64,000 bases of DNA from a virus (IMGVR_UViG_3300047494_000112:123325-187324), one strand, 5' to 3'; counted from the stretch's first letter, positions 53,151-61,555 are shown. Notes: generated from the letters alone by a model not told the origin. Program-made: numbers and translations.

Positions 53151-53732
53151 TCATTTTCGTTCAAGTTCTAACTCCTTTAAAATCAAAGGTGGTAGTAAGT
53201 CCCAGAGAGTATCTGCAAAATATACTCCTAGTTTTTGTCTAATTTCTGTTTTTGTCATAGTTTTAACAAAAAGCCAAATGTCCATTCTTCTAATACCTAG
53301 TCCAGGCAAAGAAAAGGGGCTTCTAGATTTTTGTTTATTAACCAATTTGGCTCGATGTGAGCATTTATCTTGGTTCAGACACGCTGAATAGTTTGCCTCC
53401 AATGGAGAGCCACAATTAGAACAAGAATACTGCCATTTGGATTTTTCTCTTAGTTCTTGCAATAACTGATACAGTTTTGTCATTTTTTCTAATTGGGAAA
53501 CAGAATTAGAGTAAGCAGCTTGAGCAGTTTTTTGGTCAACACCAAAAACAATTGCAAAATCTTGAATACTAGCTGTATATTTTTTGTAAAAACATCCAGT
53601 CTTTTTTCCTCCTGTTAGTCTAACAAGATTAGCTGGGCATTCATAAACTTGGCAATCTCCAATTACACGAATACTAGATATAGGACAAACGTGTATCTGT
53701 GTCTTATCCTTTCCTTTTAGTTTTACTTCCAC
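53151..53732 (-). CDS. Cys-rich hypothetical protein (zinc ribbons)
   Basis: CPIS...CQVYEC...CFYK; CSNCG...C....C. Confidence 0.7.
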   Translation of the reverse strand: MEVKLKGKDKTQIHVCPISSIRVIGDCQVYECPANLVRLTGGKKTGCFYKKYTASIQDFAIVFGVDQKTAQAAYSNSVSQLEKMTKLYQLLQELREKSKWQYSCSNCGSPLEANYSACLNQDKCSHRAKLVNKQKSRSPFSLPGLGIRRMDIWLFVKTMTKTEIRQKLGVYFADTLWDLLPPLILKELELERK

Positions 53733-54375
53733 GTTTATTTTCCTTTATCCATTTTTTTGCAAAAGCTTGAATTTGATTAGGCTTCCAAGATTCATATGGA
53801 TTTTTGTCCCACAAATTTGCTAAATAAACTGCTTGAAGATGAGCATCAATCATATGATCTGGAAAAGGCTTTAAGCTATCATAGAAACCTTCCAAAGGCC
53901 TTAAAATTTTCTCTGCTGGTACTAGTTTACCTTTCACACGTTTATTTACCATTATTGTCTTAGCGTATTGAGGATTTTGTTTAGTCCATCGGTTTTTCCA
54001 CTGTGATGCTGATATTAAATATATGTATATCTTATTCTGCAAACAGATAGAAGATATAATACCAATCATAATATTTAAATATTCGGAAGAATTTCCATTA
54101 AACCTCCCTCGATTCTGAAATCGCTCTAACAAGACAACATTTGGTTTATGCTTGTTTAGCAGTGTTTTAAATTCTAACTCGAAGGAAATTAGACAAGGCA
54201 AGAAAGCTGGATCAATTAATGTCTGAATAGTATTTGTTATAAATCCTAATTCAATTAATTTTTTACTTACGGTTAACCCGTACGCTAAATTCTTGCTACC
54301 CATGTCCAAACTTAAAATACGCTTGAATTTCTTTTTTGTTTTGATTAGCTTTGGCAGCTTAGGTTTCTTTGCCAT
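53704..54375 (-). CDS. RuvC-like Holliday junction resolvase
   Basis: ILSLDMGSKNLAYG; VLLERFQ; I.ASQWK; DHMIDA (RNase H fold D-E-D-D). Confidence 0.8.
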   Translation of the reverse strand: MAKKPKLPKLIKTKKKFKRILSLDMGSKNLAYGLTVSKKLIELGFITNTIQTLIDPAFLPCLISFELEFKTLLNKHKPNVVLLERFQNRGRFNGNSSEYLNIMIGIISSICLQNKIYIYLISASQWKNRWTKQNPQYAKTIMVNKRVKGKLVPAEKILRPLEGFYDSLKPFPDHMIDAHLQAVYLANLWDKNPYESWKPNQIQAFAKKWIKENKRGSKTKRKG

Positions 54376-54489
54376 CTATTACCTAAAATGAATAATTTGG
54401 TTTGTAGACTACCAGTAATGATTAATTGACTAACATACTAACACTATTTACCAGATTTGTCAATCTTCACAGATTTTAGGATAAAGACC

Positions 54490-55125
54490 ATGAATACTAA
54501 ACAACGTCAAGCTTTAGCTGAAATTGGTCATCCTAAGCATTTAGATAAGCTAGTTTCAGATAAAGATTCAGATGTAAGATATGCAGTAGCTATAAGTGGA
54601 AACGACTCTCATAGAGACAAGCTAATTTCAGATAAAGATTTAGATGTAAGACAAGCAGTAGCTGAGAATGGAAATGATTCCCATAAAGACAAGCTAATTT
54701 CAGATCACGATGAAGATGTAAGACAAGCAGTAGCTGAGAATGGAAACGATTCTCACAGAGATGAGCTAATATCAGATCCAAATAAATATGTAAGATATGC
54801 AGTAGCTAGGTACGGAAACGATTCTCATAGAGACAAGCTAGTTTCAGATAAAGATGAGAATGTAAGATGTGCAGTAGCTTGGAAGGGAAATGATTCCCAT
54901 AGGGACAAATTAATGTCAGATCCAAGTGAGTTTGTAAGACGGGCGATAGCTAAGCATGGAAATGACTCCCATAGAGACAAGCTAGTTTCAGATCCAGAGG
55001 AATATGTAAGATATGCAGTAGCTCAGCATGGAAATGTTAGTCATGCAAGATCTTTACTAAAAGATAAAGATAAAGAAGTTAGATTTGCTGCAAAACAAAG
55101 ACTAAAAGAGTTAGGAGAAAAATAA
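54490..55125 (+). CDS. HEAT/LRV-like repeat protein 1 (N-cap, 7 x 24-aa repeats, C-cap)
   Basis: DSHRDKLVSD-xxxx-VR-x-AVA-xx-GN repeats, 72 nt each. Confidence 0.9.
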   Translation: MNTKQRQALAEIGHPKHLDKLVSDKDSDVRYAVAISGNDSHRDKLISDKDLDVRQAVAENGNDSHKDKLISDHDEDVRQAVAENGNDSHRDELISDPNKYVRYAVARYGNDSHRDKLVSDKDENVRCAVAWKGNDSHRDKLMSDPSEFVRRAIAKHGNDSHRDKLVSDPEEYVRYAVAQHGNVSHARSLLKDKDKEVRFAAKQRLKELGEK

Positions 55126-55127
55126 AA

Positions 55128-55766
55128 ATGACACCTAACCAACGCCAAGCTCTAGCTTCAATTAGCCATCCTAAGCATTTAGACAAGCTAGTTTCAGATA
55201 AAGATTCAGATGTAAGACAAGCAGTAGCTGAGCATGGAAACGATTCCCATAAGGATAAGCTAATTAAAGATAAAGATTCAGATGTAAGACATGCAGTAGC
55301 TCAGCATGGAAATGACTCTCACAGAGATAAGCTAGTATCAGATCCAAGTGAGTATGTAAGACATGCAGTAGCTCAGCATGGAAATGACTCTCACAGAGAC
55401 AAGCTAGTTTCAGATCCAAATTCAGGTGTAAGATATGCAGTAGCTGAGAATGGAAATGACTCTCATAGAGACAAGCTAGTTTCAGATCCAAGTGAGTATG
55501 TAAGATATGTAGTAGCTAAGCATGGAAACGATTCTCACAGAGATAAGCTAGTAAAAGATAAAGATCTAGATGTAAGATATGCAGTAGCTGAGCATGGAAA
55601 TGATTCTCATAGAGACAAGCTAATTTCAGATCCAGATTGGCATGTAAGACGTGCAGTAGCTGAGAATGGAAATGTTAATCATGCAAAAGCTTTACTAGAC
55701 GATAAAGATAAAAAAGTTAGACTTGCTGCAAGACATAGACTAAAAGCATTAGGAGTTAAATCTTGA
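55128..55766 (+). CDS. HEAT/LRV-like repeat protein 2 (7 repeats)
   Basis: Same scaffold and caps as 54490..55125. Confidence 0.9.
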   Translation: MTPNQRQALASISHPKHLDKLVSDKDSDVRQAVAEHGNDSHKDKLIKDKDSDVRHAVAQHGNDSHRDKLVSDPSEYVRHAVAQHGNDSHRDKLVSDPNSGVRYAVAENGNDSHRDKLVSDPSEYVRYVVAKHGNDSHRDKLVKDKDLDVRYAVAEHGNDSHRDKLISDPDWHVRRAVAENGNVNHAKALLDDKDKKVRLAARHRLKALGVKS

Positions 55767-57370
55767 GTTTTACATTTAACGGTAACAGCGCAGATTACTC
55801 GAATACGGCAGGTTACGAAGCAATAGCTCCAGAAAACACAGGGATTGGCTGGATTGCACAAACACGATTAAATGGCTTAGTAGCTCGTGCTAATCAAAAA
55901 TTAATTAATGCTATGAAAGTTGATGGCGTGCCTTTGACTGTATGGGTAAAGACTCAGACAGGTTATCCATGTACGTGCTGTGCATCAGATAAAGTCACGT
56001 CGGGCCTTTTATCCTCTTCAGTTGAAAATGCTCAATCTACAAATCATTTTTATACTGATCTCGACGCCTCAGCTTTGCCTGATCCAACCGAACAAAAATT
56101 TAAAGCTGTTAGATTAAAAAGTGTAGATTTAGTCAACGATATCTCAGATCCAATTTGGGCCAGCTTAGCTAATCCAACAAGTAACAAGATAATTACTCCT
56201 GAAATAAATGAAACCAACCAATTAAATCAAGGAGTACAGGTTAATCTAAATCAAAACGAAGATTTAGATATTTTTGTACCTAATGCAAATCAAGTTGAAG
56301 GTCAATCTGAATACGGTGATTTTGAATTAGATGATTTCTTTGCAGGTGGAGATTCTGGAGCCGTATTTGGCGGTGATAAAACTGCTTGTGGAATTTGTTT
56401 TACCTCAGGTTTTACTCAAGGCTATTCACTATTAAATGGTCAGCGCATTGTTTTAGATGCTTCAGGTTCAGTGCCTTTTTCTTTACAAGGGGCTGATTTA
56501 ATTTCCAGCACCTATCCTAACTCTTTTAATCTACCAGTGAATAACACCGGCGTGTTTTGGCAATTAGAGCTACCTGTATTCTGCAAAGAATGGATAAACG
56601 TTAGAGCTAGGAATAATTTAAAACCAGCTCAATGGGTAATAATTGAATATAGCCTTGATGCTGTAAATTGGAATTTATTAACGTTAGATATTTTGAACGG
56701 AACTAGTAATTCTTATACACGCTTATGGTACATTCGCGCTAGAAGAGACCCTGCAGCAACACAGGTTTCACAGGTAACTTTTACACACTTGGAATTGATG
56801 GTCATTACCTCTGATCCAATTCCTTCACAAACACCAAATTTTTCCTACAACACAGATTTTAATCAGTATGATGCCATTGTAAATACAACTTTTGACGTTG
56901 CACCCACTGTAAATATGATTCCCCGAGAATCCGTTTTTAGCGATAACAAATATGGACTATTTTGGAAAGTAATAGATATTACGCCTCAAATGACCTCAGG
57001 CCAACAAATCTTTGGATTTACAGTTAATGCTAGGCTAGTACAAAGACACGAACAGCTCTATAACCTACACTCTCTATACGTTGAGGTTCCAACTTATATG
57101 TCTGTATTGGGGGCATCTGGTACAAATCTTAGTGGCTATAATTCTACTCTACCTAACCAGTTAAACGAAATCGCTGCAACTACAGCACCGTTTACTGGAT
57201 TAGAACAGGTTCAAGGTGGGTACTCTATCGTTAATTCAGAGGAACAACAAGGTGGACAACAAGTAGATAATATAGGATTAGATGACACCCAACCAATTGA
57301 ATATGATATTCAGGATACAGCTACAGTAGAATCTGGTTATCATCCTCCTGACAATCAAGGTACGTCATGA
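55763..57370 (+). CDS. Probable virion structural protein (neck/head-closure-like; CTCC and CGIC.TSGFT.GY motifs)
   Basis: 535 aa; N/Q/T/S-rich; Cys motifs; coupled to LRV genes on both sides; located in the structural module. Confidence 0.55.
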   Translation: MSFTFNGNSADYSNTAGYEAIAPENTGIGWIAQTRLNGLVARANQKLINAMKVDGVPLTVWVKTQTGYPCTCCASDKVTSGLLSSSVENAQSTNHFYTDLDASALPDPTEQKFKAVRLKSVDLVNDISDPIWASLANPTSNKIITPEINETNQLNQGVQVNLNQNEDLDIFVPNANQVEGQSEYGDFELDDFFAGGDSGAVFGGDKTACGICFTSGFTQGYSLLNGQRIVLDASGSVPFSLQGADLISSTYPNSFNLPVNNTGVFWQLELPVFCKEWINVRARNNLKPAQWVIIEYSLDAVNWNLLTLDILNGTSNSYTRLWYIRARRDPAATQVSQVTFTHLELMVITSDPIPSQTPNFSYNTDFNQYDAIVNTTFDVAPTVNMIPRESVFSDNKYGLFWKVIDITPQMTSGQQIFGFTVNARLVQRHEQLYNLHSLYVEVPTYMSVLGASGTNLSGYNSTLPNQLNEIAATTAPFTGLEQVQGGYSIVNSEEQQGGQQVDNIGLDDTQPIEYDIQDTATVESGYHPPDNQGTS

Positions 57371-57858
57371 CACCTAACCAACGCAAAGCTTTAGCTTCAA
57401 TTAGCCATCCTAAGCATTTAGATAAGCTAATTAAAGATTCACATGTAGGTGTAAGATATGCAGTAGCTGAGAATGGAAACGATTACCATAGAGACAAGCT
57501 AGTTTCAGATCCAAATTGGTATGTAAGACAAGCAGTAGCTGAGAATGGAAACGATTACCATAGAGACAAGCTAGTTTCAGATCCAAATTGGTATGTAAGA
57601 CAAGCAGTAGCTTGGAATGGAAATGACTCTCACAGAGACAAGCTAGTTAAAGATACAGATTGGATTGTAAGACAAGCAGTAGCTGAGCATGGAAATGATT
57701 CTTATAGAGACAAGCTTGTCTCAGATCCAGATTGGCATGTAAGACAAGCAGTAGCTAGGAATGGAAATGCTAACCATGCTAAAGCTTTGCTAAAAGATAA
57801 AGATAAAAATGTTAGAGATATTGCAAAAAATAGACTAAAAGATTTAGGAGCACAGTAA
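57367..57858 (+). CDS. HEAT/LRV-like repeat protein 3 (5 repeats)
   Basis: Same scaffold; exact 72-nt tandem duplication at 57469-57540 and 57541-57612. Confidence 0.9.
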   Translation: MTPNQRKALASISHPKHLDKLIKDSHVGVRYAVAENGNDYHRDKLVSDPNWYVRQAVAENGNDYHRDKLVSDPNWYVRQAVAWNGNDSHRDKLVKDTDWIVRQAVAEHGNDSYRDKLVSDPDWHVRQAVARNGNANHAKALLKDKDKNVRDIAKNRLKDLGAQ

Positions 57859-58181
57859 TGATTAGAATAAATTTACCTCCAGCTGCAAAAATAAACAGAC
57901 AACAACGTTATGCAGCAATTAAAAATGTTGACCCAAAACCTTCGTTTATGCAAAAGCCTCTTCCGCCTACTTCTAGTACGGAAATTCGCACTCGATTACC
58001 TACAATGGAAACTGCATCAACCTGCAGACGCAACCCTAGAATTTCAACGGTGCGATAATGGATGTGTGGTAATAAAGACCACGCTAAAGCTCTATTAAAA
58101 GACACTGACCCGGATGTTCGTAAACGTGCTAAATATAAACTTGATCAGTTAAATTCAAAAAAATCTAATTCAAATTCATAA
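57858..58181 (+). pseudogene. Degenerate LRV-family paralog (in-frame TAA at 58056, then an intact C-cap)
   Basis: ...ISTVR*WMCGNKDHAKALLKDTDPDVRKRAKYKLDQL matches the C-cap of the paralogs. Confidence 0.55.
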
Positions 58182-58233
58182 TTACTTTTTGAGAGTCTAA
58201 AAAGACCTCATTCACTACACTTAGGAGAAAGTC

Positions 58234-58871
58234 ATGTTTGGTCTACGCCGTAGAAAAACCAATATGACCAGAGACAAGAAAACGGGTAGGATGCGAAGAA
58301 AAGACCCAAAACGTTCTAGAGCTGCCAAAAAAGCAGCTCGAAAGCGTATTGGTAAGCATTTATCAGCAGCTACTCGTCGAAAAATTGCACGTTCAGAACA
58401 ACGTGCAAGAAAAACCGGAAGAACCAAAGCAGGCCGTAGAGTAATCAAGGCTGCCGTAGTGCCGGTAATTGGACCCAACGCTAAACGTAAAAGGATATCA
58501 CTTGTGACTAAAGCTAAAAAAGCGGCTGCGAAAACAGCCTTGAAGCCGGCGAAACTAATTGCAGTTACAGCTAGTACAAAAAAGAAAGTAAAAGCTGTCA
58601 AGGCTGTAAAGCCTGCCAAAGGCACAAAAGCTGCTCCGAAGAAAGAAACCAAAGCTAAAGCTGTAAAGGTTGTTAAGGCCAAGAAGGCGGGACTGCAAAG
58701 GTCAAAGCCACAAAAGTTAAGGCTGCAACAAAGACTTCGCCTAAGACTGCACGTACAAAGGTAACAGCTTCCGCCAAAAAGACGACCCCTAAAGGAAAGA
58801 CCAAAAATTTGGTCAAGGCCAAAGGTACACGTATCAAGAAAGCAACGCCTTCCGTTATTACAGTTAAATAA
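58234..58871 (+). CDS. Arg/Lys/Ala-rich histone/protamine-like protein, apparently frameshifted near 58690
   Basis: Annotated frame ends at 58764. The -1 frame from 58692 continues TAKVKATKVKAATKTSPKTARTK...VITVK to TAA at 58871, just before a terminator. Confidence 0.75.
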
Positions 58872-58885
58872 ACTAATAGAGTATT

Positions 58886-58913
58886 GGTGAGAGTGTAAAA
58901 ACTCTCACCTTTT
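58886..58913 (+). terminator. Rho-independent terminator
   Basis: ggtgagagt-gtaaaa-actctcacc then tttt. Confidence 0.8.
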
Positions 58914-58928
58914 CTAGGAGGCAAGTCA

Positions 58929-60086
58929 TTGCCGTCGACTGCAAATATTCGTAAGTATCAAAACCTTCGTGCTGTATCTTTACATTTAGTTGAGATTAAT
59001 AAACAGCACCAAGCTCTCGCGAAAACCATTGATAAGATTGTCAAAGCCAACGATAAAGTTATTACCGTTGGTCCTTCTGCACGACAAAAAATTACTGTAA
59101 AACAAGCACTACCTCAGCCGATAGTTGATAAAATTGCAAACAATAGCAAGGTAATTGACAAGCTTAGCCAGCAATATGCTGCGCTATCAAACATGATTCT
59201 TAATCTAAATACTCAATTCAAGACTTCAAATGTTGATCCCAAATTGGTTGATCTATTAACGTCTAAAATTGCTGAATTACAAAATCAAATTCGGTCACAA
59301 AGAGATATAGCCAATAAAGCAGCTACCCACTATGGTCAGTCTTACGCATCTAATGTTGGGATTAGCTATGCCAAAAAAATCATGAATTTTTTAAACAAAA
59401 AATTCAGCACCAAAGGTACAATGATTACTACCTCAGGTATGATTGACGGTCAGCCTTGTATTACTCATTTTGTAAAATACGAAAACATTAAGAATGATAA
59501 AGATGAAATTGAACCGATGGTTACGGTAGCAATTTCGGAGTATCAAGGTCATCATTGGATTAATCCTAATTCAGTTCAGCCTCGCTCTGTAGGAAAATTT
59601 AGATTAGGTTTTCAATTAGATGATGATGAAAAGAAAGCTCTCATTCAGATTCAACGCTACGTTCAAGAACAAATGGCTGCTGATTCTTTATCATCAACTC
59701 ATTCTTTGAAGCTAATACCGATTACCAAAAAGCAGGCAGGACTACAAAAATATAATAATGCTGTCTTTACTGACAAGTCGATAGTTGTTACTTTTCCTAA
59801 AAAAGAGATTAAGACAGAAGCTCAAGCCAAAGAAAGAGCGGAAGCAATTTATCGCAACATCCATCATGCTTATGTTGCTTCACATCCAGGAAAGAGATCT
59901 TTTGATCGGATTGTTTATCCTATTAAACAAGTGGGTGATAACTGGGTTGTAACGTACATGTTTGTCACTGGTGATAAATTTACAGGACGAACAATGACCA
60001 ATGATGAACATCAAAAATTAAATAACATTTTTGATCCTCATGAAGTAGCTGTTTTGAAAAAAGCTCTTAACAGCATGTTTGATTAA
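58929..60086 (+). CDS. Hypothetical protein (possibly structural), N-terminal coiled coil
   Basis: 385 aa; AGGAGG RBS with TTG start. Confidence 0.75.
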   Translation: MPSTANIRKYQNLRAVSLHLVEINKQHQALAKTIDKIVKANDKVITVGPSARQKITVKQALPQPIVDKIANNSKVIDKLSQQYAALSNMILNLNTQFKTSNVDPKLVDLLTSKIAELQNQIRSQRDIANKAATHYGQSYASNVGISYAKKIMNFLNKKFSTKGTMITTSGMIDGQPCITHFVKYENIKNDKDEIEPMVTVAISEYQGHHWINPNSVQPRSVGKFRLGFQLDDDEKKALIQIQRYVQEQMAADSLSSTHSLKLIPITKKQAGLQKYNNAVFTDKSIVVTFPKKEIKTEAQAKERAEAIYRNIHHAYVASHPGKRSFDRIVYPIKQVGDNWVVTYMFVTGDKFTGRTMTNDEHQKLNNIFDPHEVAVLKKALNSMFD

Positions 60087-60090
60087 CAGA

Positions 60091-60583
60091 ATGAACACAC
60101 TTGAACAACGCATAGCTTTAGCTAAAATTGGTCATCCTAAACATTTAGACAAGCTAGTCTCAGATCCAAGTAAGCATGTAAGACATGCAGTAGCTGAGAA
60201 TGGAAATGATTCTCATAGAGACAAGCTAGTTTCAGATCCAGATTGGAGTGTAAGATATGCAGTAGCTATAGAGGGGAATGACTCTCATAGAGACAAGCTA
60301 GTTTCAGATAAAGATTGGCATGTAAGACATGCAGTAGCTGAGAATGGAAATGATTCTCATAGAGACAAGCTAGTAAAAGATCCAAATGGATATGTAAGAT
60401 ATGCAGTAGCTAGGTATGGAAACGACTCATAGAGACAAGCTAATTTCGGATCCAAGTGAGTTTGTAAGACGTGCAGTAGCTTGGAAAGGAAATGCTAACC
60501 ATGCTAAAGCTTTGCTAAATGATAAAGATAAAAATGTTAGAGATGCTGCAAAAGGTAGACTAAAAAAGTTAGGAGTACGGTAA
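60091..60583 (+). pseudogene. HEAT/LRV-like repeat protein 4 (5 repeats) with a 2-nt deletion near 60427
   Basis: aacgactcataga instead of aacgactctcataga; the shifted frame carries repeat 5 and the C-cap to TAA at 60583. Confidence 0.8.
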
Positions 60584-61108: not shown

Positions 61109-61555
61109 ATGCCTAAATCAGGTGCTCTCGAAACTGGCGTCCTTAACCTTGTTCTTAACGCCACAGGTATTGCAAATATTGCAGATAATACCGCAACTTC
61201 TCCTTTGACCAATCTATACTTTGCTCTTCATACAGCTTCTCCTGGCGCTTCTGGCAATCAAAGTGCTAACGAAATATCTTACACTGGTTATTCTAGAGTA
61301 GCTGTTCTTCGTAACACAGGTTCACCTGCTTGGACCTTGACAGGTACTAATCCTGTTTCCGCTTCACCAAACTCTAACGTTACTTTTGGCACTAGCACTG
61401 GCGGTACTGGTGGTACAATTACCTATTTTTCACTTGGCTCTTTAGCAAGTGGTGCTGGCGTAATTTATTACTATGGTACTGTTACTCCTAATATCACAGT
61501 TACTACCGGTGTTGCTCCTCAGCTAACAACGGCTTCAACCATCACGGAAACCTAA
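61109..61555 (+). CDS. Phage tail/tail-fibre-associated structural protein
   Basis: LYFALHTASPG...EISYTGYSRVAV...VTF...GTITYF pattern typical of phage tail-fibre-associated proteins. Confidence 0.75.
   Translation: MPKSGALETGVLNLVLNATGIANIADNTATSPLTNLYFALHTASPGASGNQSANEISYTGYSRVAVLRNTGSPAWTLTGTNPVSASPNSNVTFGTSTGGTGGTITYFSLGSLASGAGVIYYYGTVTPNITVTTGVAPQLTTASTITET

Follow-up and report, generated by a model that had tools for sequence, protein, structure and literature searches.

Among the closest described systems are the fungal NOD-like receptors, whose repeats (WD40 in HET-E/HET-D; also ANK, TPR, and HEAT) show high internal conservation (PMC11761791, PMC4986451). Their near-identical DNA units carry a few hypervariable codons that are under diversifying selection on the interaction surface, and the units vary in number and move both within a paralog and from one paralog to another (PMC11761791, PMC4986451). 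Our literature searches found this mode of evolution in fungal immune receptors, returned no description of it for any virus, and yielded no paper linking the leucine rich repeat variant (LRV) with phage. Here we describe a T4-like large phage that carries a multigene family of 16 genes and 89 units in its 187-kb record. Four of these genes (paralogs A-D) lie at 54,490-60,583 of the 64,000-nucleotide window. The features are as follows, all on the + strand.

54490..55125 (+): paralog A; N-cap, 7 units of 72 nt (first at 54559), and C-cap; 211 aa.
55128..55766 (+): paralog B; N-cap, 7 units (first at 55197), and C-cap; 212 aa; the protein chosen for modeling.
55763..57370 (+): a 535-aa gene of unknown function between paralogs B and C; context, not a family member.
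57367..57858 (+): paralog C; N-cap, 5 units (first at 57436), and C-cap; 163 aa.
60091..60583 (+): paralog D; 5 units (60163 onward, last at 60449); a broken gene.
54559..60520 (+): 24 in-register 72-nt units (24 pattern matches versus 0 expected), used for per-column base counts.

The reading frame of paralog A is open from a TTG at 54457. Paralog D has suffered a 2-nt deletion at ~60429 that creates a TAG at 60430-60432 and leaves pieces at 60079-60432 and 60416-60583. The start and stop of the 535-aa gene overlap the adjoining genes, and its product matches phrog_21298 (1e-13; function unknown). Family genes carry 4-7 units each and encode stand-alone proteins of 113-219 aa that consist of an N-cap, repeats, and a C-cap alone; Pfam searches and gene architecture revealed neither a NOD/STAND NTPase nor an effector domain in the family proteins. 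Many of the genes are wedged among structural genes, within structural-gene operons.

Each of the 24 units at 54559-60520 combines variable blocks (codons 2-5, 8, and 12-13) with invariant spacers (GTAAGA, GCAGTAGCT, and GGAAA). A distant phage, G001, carries 95 units with the same amino-acid scaffold. The window phage and G001 are T4-like and only distantly related (22-34% identity between their baseplate proteins); each devotes ~6-8% of its genome to 16-25 near-identical LRV-repeat genes, with a mean unit identity of 78% nt and 69% aa in the window phage and 85% nt and 77% aa in G001. A megablast search against the phage collection gave no match, and a search of viral contigs recovered one related genome alone. 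Among public runs, the stretch is present in the contigs of one moss-metagenome study only, and these contigs fragment within the repeats and cross-map between paralogs.

In the AlphaFold2 model of paralog B (pLDDT 96.4), every unit folds into two helices, of 10 and 7 residues. The model's best fold match is 1LRV (TM 0.79, rmsd 2.5 Å over 191 columns, 27% identity); artificial alphaRep binders come next, with the alphaRep complexes 6bzx, 4xl5, and 4zv6 among the top matches. Paralogs A, B, and C score 70-78 bits against Pfam HEAT (PF02985; 77.7 for A and 70.2 for B; cut-off 23.5). Pfam LRV (PF01816; cut-off 21.6) is exceeded by paralog B (34.9 bits) and paralog C (25.4 bits), whereas paralog A falls under it (19.7 bits). 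Paralog B also matches PHROG 20647 (1e-60). A 24-residue period (72 nt), two helices per repeat, and solenoid stacking all mark the proteins as LRV/HEAT-like. In the model, helix A spans unit residues 4-13 and contains the variable residues 4, 5, 8, 12, and 13, and our reading of helix periodicity suggests that these share one exposed face. W, Y, H, N, D, E, and R abound among the variable residues, which would make up a paratope-like surface, and the residue sets at each position are similar in the window phage and G001.

The earlier note had drawn attention to an unusual codon signature in these units, and its counts were reproduced exactly on the 24 units at 54559-60520. The codon before VR (unit codon 5) specifies any of eight amino acids (D, Y, N, F, G, H, I, and S) and is NNT in 24/24 units. 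At codon 12, 22/24 units have NNG (GAG, AGG, TGG, AAG, and CAG, with ATA in the remaining two), and codon 13 is NNT in 20/24. Across the 89 units of the whole record, the corresponding counts are 82/89, 76/89, and 82/89. Codon bias fails to explain this third-base pattern, because two-fold purine-ending codons at codon 12 (GAG/AAG/CAG/AGG versus their A-ending synonyms) show G:A = 60:4 (binomial 4e-26, with units treated as independent), while the genome background of 134 other ORFs favors GAA, AAA, and CAA by ~69:31. Similarly, T outnumbers C by 67:0 at codon 5 and by 77:2 at codon 13, compared to 184:129 at scaffold codons 15, 16, 18, and 20.

Codons 5, 12, and 13 do combine a frozen third base with variation at positions 1-2, but the freeze is not specific to hypervariable codons. 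Scaffold third positions are all monomorphic in codons 1-14 (GTA, AGA, GCA, GTA, GCT, GGA), whereas 9/10 are polymorphic in codons 15-24 (P=4e-4), and the third position does vary at variable codons 4 and 8 of the window phage. Synonymous diversity is likewise uneven, with a few sites near 50:50 (pi ~0.5 at codons 15, 16, and 20) and the rest fixed.

Moreover, the frozen third base is lineage-specific. G001 uses GTT-CGT, GGT, and AAA in place of the GTA-AGA, GGA, and AAG of the window phage, and has NNA at codon 12 in 95/95 units (NNG in the window phage), NNA at codon 8 in 94/95, and NNT at codon 5 in 94/95. In the Vibrio phage vB_VmeM-32 (~5 copies), which serves as a control without homogenization, third positions are scrambled. 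Mean third-position diversity at codons for invariant residues is 0.44 in vB_VmeM-32, 0.19 in the window phage, and 0.08 in G001.

These comparisons bear on the idea that the third bases are kept in place by a nucleotide-level constraint, whether from codon bias, RNA structure, an antisense gene, or a DNA motif. The contrast between codons 1-14 and 15-24 would fit such a constraint, as would the open antisense frames across the repeats and an RNA fold z-score of -1.85. Nevertheless, we judge this to be very unlikely given that the frozen bases differ between phages and are scrambled in the Vibrio phage, that background codon usage favors the opposite base at codon 12, that no Rfam match was found, and that 10/200 shuffles fold equally well.

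A second proposal is that the positions are targets of hypermutation, either by a diversity-generating retroelement (DGR) that error-copies an adenine-rich template or by another enzyme that hits positions 1-2. The NNT/NNG codons do resemble the AAY-to-NNY outcome of DGRs, and the window's record is just ~81% complete. The earlier note had considered a classical DGR a poor fit, and this assessment was borne out. The search for a reverse transcriptase (RVT_1) that it had suggested carrying beyond the window gave no match in the 187-kb record or in a complete 150-kb relative with the same signature, whereas control genomes matched. No non-coding template repeat was found in the record, as all 89 copies recovered with a loose pattern lie within family reading frames. 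Adenine specificity is also absent: in the window phage, 12/24 consensus-A columns are frozen, including those in synonymous GTA, GCA, and GGA, and in 20/23 highly variable columns the consensus base is C, G, or T. Diversity at position 1 exceeds that at position 2 (0.73 versus 0.46 at codon 5), and the targets are 16 dispersed alpha-solenoid genes rather than a lectin-fold tip. We reject a DGR, and of all the explanations weighed here we give targeted hypermutation the least credence; the codon signature itself gives no indication of a novel mutagenic system. The ancestral AAT/AAG codons that had been invoked are not needed as an explanation.

Between sister units of the window phage, third positions account for 12-16% of amino-acid-changing differences, compared to 12-21% expected from the genetic code alone. 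The corresponding share at codons 5, 8, and 12 of G001 is 1/94, below the code-based expectation of 11-18%; this shortfall calls for an argument from residue preference (see below), which we infer.

The variable blocks also have a distinctive pattern of association. Alleles are strongly associated within blocks (z 17-22 in G001) and have approximately zero association between blocks, and for quartets of multi-nucleotide alleles, all four combinations occur in 34-39 cases in G001 and in 6 cases in the window phage. The three small blocks, separated by 6-9 nt, thus reassort between units, with reshuffling on a scale of ~10 nt. Units differ by a mean of 14.8 within a gene versus 15.9 between genes, and same-gene units are no closer than units from different genes or from the two genome arms. 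The mode of exchange is probably short-tract gene conversion. A search for selection against local identity at polymorphic synonymous sites gave a null result (2.27 differences between adjacent units versus 2.21 between random pairs; P=0.38). Synonymous diversity in the caps is as low as in the units, a clock that does not discriminate between a burst and gene conversion.

The earlier note had proposed either diversifying selection or targeted mutagenesis, and the first of these is favored by per-codon substitution ratios. The second is not supported, given that neither the record nor the complete relative yielded a reverse transcriptase and that variation is not A-specific. Parsimony on a tree of the units puts the nonsynonymous/synonymous ratio at 2.4-3.2 for codons 5, 8, and 12 in two independent genomes and at 0-0.3 for the scaffold; because exchange between units produces homoplasy, such tree- and pair-based ratios compare levels of diversity rather than mutation events. 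The ratio also varies with the reference, from ~2-3 against all synonymous sites to at least 5 against synonymous sites inside variable codons. Per-codon Nei-Gojobori ratios are distorted by multi-step paths and near-zero synonymous site counts, and were replaced by per-column diversity, nearest-neighbor pairs, and parsimony counts. Independent nearest-neighbor pairs show nonsynonymous differences in variable codons of 29/16/6 and 38/22/4 at the three codon positions, against scaffold synonymous counts of 16 and 28, in the same direction as the tree ratios.

Relaxed constraint might produce a similar picture if the family expanded recently from one gene, leaving exposed positions free (omega ~1) while the scaffold was conserved. 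The synonymous diversity noted above is not negligible, change counts are inflated by recombination, and heterozygosity alone gives a borderline contrast in the window genome (9/12 versus 5/14, P=0.06), all of which would be compatible with this account. In contrast, a cross-validated test, in which variable positions were defined in one genome and tested in the other, found at least 3 common alleles at 9/12 variable sites versus 0/14 neutral third positions in the window genome (P=7e-5), and at 7/16 versus 0/17 in the second comparison (P=0.003). The 9 first or second positions in the window genome have 3-4 common alleles, whereas neutral third positions have at most 2. Furthermore, nonsynonymous changes greatly outnumber synonymous ones within the variable codons (224 versus 8 at codons 4, 5, 8, 12, and 13 of the window phage; 119 versus 0 at codons 5, 8, 9, and 12 of G001), and the same positions and similar residues recur in two phages with such dissimilar baseplates. 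We therefore regard relaxed constraint as improbable.

It is also necessary to consider whether short-read assembly collapsed or mixed paralogous units, creating false uniformity or mosaics. Misassembly of highly conserved repeats from Illumina data has been documented (PMC11761791). The two expanded genomes were both assembled from short-read metagenomes, their unit order could be partly chimeric, and short-word contigs fragment inside the repeats. However, the variable blocks of a unit span 36 nt and fit inside one read, and per-unit codon counts are therefore independent of unit order. In addition, an independent assembly from the same sample matches 54826-54985, 55188-55311, and 60355-60517 (the last within paralog D) without a difference, all 88 intact units of the record are distinct in DNA, and the second sample and genome (G001) shows the same pattern. 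An assembly artifact is accordingly even harder to credit than a nucleotide-level constraint.

The explanation that we consider likely is that the family is young or homogenized, that its exposed helix face is under diversifying selection, and that copy homogenization combined with selection generates the codon pattern. Each gene is predicted to produce a small capped alpha-solenoid of 24-residue LRV/HEAT-type repeats. The copies within a genome would descend from a single founder or be kept alike through inter-copy exchange, and for either reason synonymous positions would be nearly fixed at the lineage's own base. Amino-acid variation is limited to three blocks: unit codons 2-5, codon 8 (together with codon 9 in the relative), and codons 12-13. 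These blocks probably lie along the exposed side of the first helix; diversifying selection would render them multi-allelic, and very short exchanges would reassort them between units.

Under the genetic code, most amino-acid changes require a substitution at position 1 or 2, and the residues accepted at each site would dictate a purine or pyrimidine third base. For example, position 12 appears to accept E/K/Q/R/I/T, which would impose NNR, and position 5 appears to accept Y/N/D/H/S/G, which would impose NNY. The choice among purines or pyrimidines would then be inherited and homogenized. Thus, code structure, per-position residue sets, and an inherited, homogenized third base would together yield variable positions 1-2 and a frozen position 3, and the codon signature is the expected footprint of homogenized repeats with selected surface positions. 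The diversity is probably maintained by selection rather than mutation, and the variable face may bind a ligand. We propose that the proteins form a repertoire of binders.

We speculate further, although we think this rather doubtful, that the phage keeps a combinatorial repertoire in which ~90 units in ~16 genes swap three specificity blocks via exchanges of a few bases. If true, recognition surfaces would be renewed far faster than by point mutation. Such a repertoire could be directed against variable host molecules (defense proteins, receptors) or could serve modular peptide or nucleic-acid recognition, which would make it the viral analog of immune receptors assembled from cassettes. Should the proteins bind host factors, the family would be a binder scaffold that is both natural and evolvable, and would open a route to study phage recognition diversity without a retroelement.

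Like the fungal NLR repeats, the phage family has units with closely similar DNA, few selected surface codons, variable unit number, and exchange. The phage proteins differ in being viral, stand-alone capped solenoids that lack an NTPase or effector and that are in many cases encoded within structural-gene operons, and in reassorting below the level of the unit. Their inter-unit aa identity (69-77%) is lower than the 85% over 100 aa of the Dyrka et al. criterion, because ~7/24 residues are variable while the scaffold is almost invariant. DGRs, which also occur in phages, similarly vary positions 1-2 of selected codons with a fixed third base; the phage family is distinguished from them by having no reverse transcriptase in the 187-kb record or the complete relative, and no template repeat, adenine specificity, or lectin/Ig-fold target.

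The HEAT proteins of vB_VmeM-32 (KU160494; PHROG 20647), also a T4-like phage, belong to the same family and have the motif VRxxVAxYGNDxHRDILVN, and go unmentioned in that phage's genome paper. They differ in being encoded by ~5 copies among small genes of unknown function, and lack the codon signature because their synonymous sites are scrambled. The Azotobacter vinelandii protein 1LRV (PF01816) shares the 24-residue two-helix repeat, but is a single bacterial protein with diverged repeats, neither part of a multigene family nor homogenized at the DNA level.

TAL effectors and PUF proteins are built from repeats that are almost the same except at two or three specificity residues. The phage variable residues, at i, i+1, and i+4 on one helix, recall this arrangement, but repeat length and fold differ and the PUF Pfam profile scores 19.3 bits, short of its 26.3 cut-off. 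Finally, alphaRep/DARPin-type libraries likewise hold a capped helical-repeat scaffold constant while varying few surface positions per repeat, whereas the phage family is natural and has shorter repeats (24 aa). That its NNT/NNG codons look like those of a designed library is a coincidence arising from descent.

Positions 54490-60583 of the window carry four paralogous plus-strand genes, in each of which four to seven units, every one precisely 72 nt long, stand between an N-cap and a C-cap:

Paralog A, 54490-55125, + strand: N-cap, 72-nt units, C-cap
Paralog B, 55128-55766, + strand: N-cap, 72-nt units, C-cap
Paralog C, 57367-57858, + strand: N-cap, 72-nt units, C-cap
Paralog D, 60091-60583, + strand: reading frame broken near 60429

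The unit consensus is D-[P/K]-x-x-x-V-R-x-A-V-A-x-x-G-N-D-S-H-R-D-K-L-V-S, and the family corresponds to PHROG 20647, whose function is unknown. The virus record is 187,324 bp long, with the window as its final 64 kb, and across this entire record the family comprises 16 genes and 89 units; the 12 genes outside the window are on the minus strand, between 8 and 52 kb of the record. Paralog D is interrupted by a 2-nt deletion at 60427-60432 that creates a TAG codon and a frameshift, and the same sequence is present in an independent contig from the same moss-associated sample.

Many family genes run into a neighboring structural gene, overlapping its start or its stop. A gene directly downstream of the array (61109-61555) matches head protein family phrog_240 (4e-11), and thus the repeat genes of the window are embedded among virion genes. 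The first repeat gene is immediately preceded by an opposite-strand gene for a RuvC-like Holliday junction resolvase (53704-54375, - strand; phrog_18317, 2e-15). The independent contig also carries one extra T after position 58690, within a lysine-rich ORF (58234-58764), so beyond that point the window may show this ORF in an incorrect frame. Antisense frames are open through the repeat arrays at 54590-54781, 55264-55491, and 57431-57586 (- strand), most likely as a by-product of repeating a single stop-free unit.

An earlier note on this DNA reported that, among 24 window units, codons 5 and 13 almost always conform to NNT and codon 12 to NNG. All three counts were reproduced exactly, and the pattern extends genome-wide (82/89, 82/89, and 76/89 for codons 5, 13, and 12, respectively). 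Codon bias, which might have accounted for the pattern in full, fails to do so. In 134 other ORFs, two-fold purine codons favor A over G (about 69:31) and T is preferred to C (about 67:33), but the G:A ratio at codon 12 is 60:4, against the preference for A. T:C is 67:0 at codon 5 and 77:2 at codon 13, compared to 184:129 at scaffold codons 15, 16, 18, and 20. These ratios indicate that codon bias cannot explain the frozen third bases. The freeze also extends beyond the variable codons to the scaffold of codons 1-14, where all scaffold third positions are monomorphic, versus 9/10 polymorphic in codons 15-24 (P = 4e-4). At variable codons 4 and 8, the third position does vary.

A comparable expansion is found in one other viral contig, IMGVR_UViG_3300050132_000084 (150 kb, terminal repeats, complete; hereafter "the relative"), which gave about 25 matches and from which 95 units were extracted. 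Its scaffold is almost identical (D-S-x-x-x-V-R-x-x-V-A-x-x-G-N-D-S-H-R-D-K-L-V-N), but its synonymous codons differ from those of this phage (GTT-CGT vs. GTA-AGA, GGT vs. GGA, and AAA vs. AAG, this phage second) and a different set of bases is frozen at its variable codons (codon 12 NNA 95/95, codon 8 NNA 94/95, codon 5 NNT 94/95). It also carries one broken family gene (unit at 112526, with stops). The two phages are only distantly related, their gp6-like baseplate proteins being 22% identical and their gp25-like proteins 34%. Both share the gene order gp25-[repeat gene]-gp6-[repeat gene], a baseplate-operon placement (loci L001, 8409-13947, and L004, 675-5055) kept despite this 22-34% identity.

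The cultured T4-like Vibrio phage vB_VmeM-32 has about five family genes, one annotated as "HEAT repeat protein," among small genes of unknown function, and more distant homologues are present in other large T4-like contigs. The vB_VmeM-32 units retain the scaffold residues with synonymous positions scrambled; codons for invariant residues have a mean third-position diversity of 0.44, versus 0.19 in this phage and 0.08 in the relative. Given this scrambling and the different bases frozen in the two expanded phages, the frozen third base is lineage-specific. It accompanies large, homogeneous expansions.

Two explanations had been proposed for the signature: targeted mutagenesis and diversifying selection. 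The earlier note considered a classical diversity-generating retroelement (DGR) a poor fit, in part for want of a reverse transcriptase in the window, and our data bear this out. No reverse transcriptase match was found in the 187,324-bp record, which covers about 81% of its genome, or in the complete relative, although control genomes did match, and the record contains no non-coding copy of the unit that could represent a template. Moreover, 12 of 24 consensus-A columns are frozen, including those of synonymous GTA, GCA, and GGA, the highly variable columns have mostly C, G, or T as consensus, and variability is higher at codon position 1 than at position 2. On these grounds, a DGR is rejected.

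Targeted mutagenesis more generally is rejected on the same absence of enzyme and template, on the frozen A columns, and on the share of differences falling at third positions. Among independent nearest-neighbor units of this genome, this share is 12-16% in amino-acid-changing codons; for these codons, 12-21% is expected from the genetic code alone, the figure varying with the transition bias. The relative's share (6-8%) is below its code-based expectation (11-18%), which we attribute to position-specific residue sets that are similar in both phages, such as E/K/Q/R/I/T at position 12 and Y/N/D/S/G at position 5. The residue set at a position would decide between a purine and a pyrimidine as third base, and descent would determine which purine or pyrimidine it is.

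Diversifying selection is supported. On a unit tree scored by parsimony, the nonsynonymous rates per site, with the global synonymous rate as reference, are 3.1, 2.5, 3.1, and 2.4 at codons 4, 5, 8, and 12 in this genome and 2.7, 3.0, 2.1, and 3.2 at codons 5, 8, 9, and 12 in the relative, with 0-0.3 at scaffold codons; because exchange between units is rife, these figures are comparisons of diversity rather than counts of mutations. Under the same reading, 8 synonymous versus 224 nonsynonymous changes fall within codons 4, 5, 8, 12, and 13 of this genome, and 0 versus 119 within codons 5, 8, 9, and 12 of the relative. To guard against circularity, variable positions were defined in one genome and tested in the other. 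Sites with at least three common alleles numbered 9/12 versus 0/14 neutral third positions in this genome (P = 7e-5) and 7/16 versus 0/17 in the relative (P = 0.003).

The variable codons fall into three blocks (2-5, 8-9, and 12-13). Codons of the same block are strongly associated (z = 17-22, relative), and the association drops almost to zero from one block to the next, across gaps of just 6-9 nt. All four combinations occur for 34-39 quartets of multi-nucleotide alleles in the relative and for six in this genome, and codon 24 switches 18 times between TCA and AAA, a two-base alternation, along the unit tree. Units sharing a gene resemble one another no more closely than units from different genes or from the two genome arms. 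Synonymous C/T sites in codons 15, 16, 17, 18, and 20 are near 50:50 across the 24 window units and the record's other 65, and are essentially unlinked (r2 ≤ 0.12 even 3 nt apart; 19 haplotypes). Very short exchange tracts are the only explanation we can offer for these sites. The hot synonymous sites of the relative are different ones. The absent neutral diversity in the first half of the unit might reflect hitch-hiking with the selected blocks or, alternatively, a requirement that the spacers stay identical to serve as homology anchors. With caps and units equally homogeneous, a recent burst from a single founder cannot be distinguished from ongoing gene conversion.

All three intact genes (A, B, and C) match Pfam HEAT with 70-78 bits, and paralogs B and C exceed the cut-off for Pfam LRV. 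In the AlphaFold2 model of paralog B (pLDDT 96.4), every unit forms two helices, one of 10 residues (unit residues 4-13) and one of 7 (16-22). The closest solved structure is 1LRV, the leucine-rich repeat variant protein of Azotobacter vinelandii (TM 0.79), followed by artificial alphaRep binders. Reasoning from helix periodicity, variable residues 4, 5, 8, and 12 (plus 9 and 13) are predicted to lie opposite conserved V6, V10, and A11 on the first helix. W, Y, H, N, D, E, and R are abundant at the variable positions, a composition common in binding surfaces, and the proteins are mostly mildly basic (pI ~9). We infer that the family may be a binder repertoire engaged in an arms race.

In fungal NOD-like receptors, highly conserved repeats each have a few codons under diversifying selection and are exchanged between paralogs (PMC11761791, PMC4986451). 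The evolutionary mode of the phage family matches this, and the codon signature is its expected footprint. The same literature reports that highly conserved repeats misassemble from short reads, a caveat that applies to unit order in the phage family. The codon counts of single units escape it, since all variable blocks of a unit fit within 36 nt. A known evolutionary mode is placed in a viral setting, of which no earlier description was found in the literature searched. Unlike the fungal receptors, the phage proteins are hosted by a virus and are stand-alone capped repeats without an NTPase, their genes sit inside structural operons, and their reassortment acts below the level of the unit.
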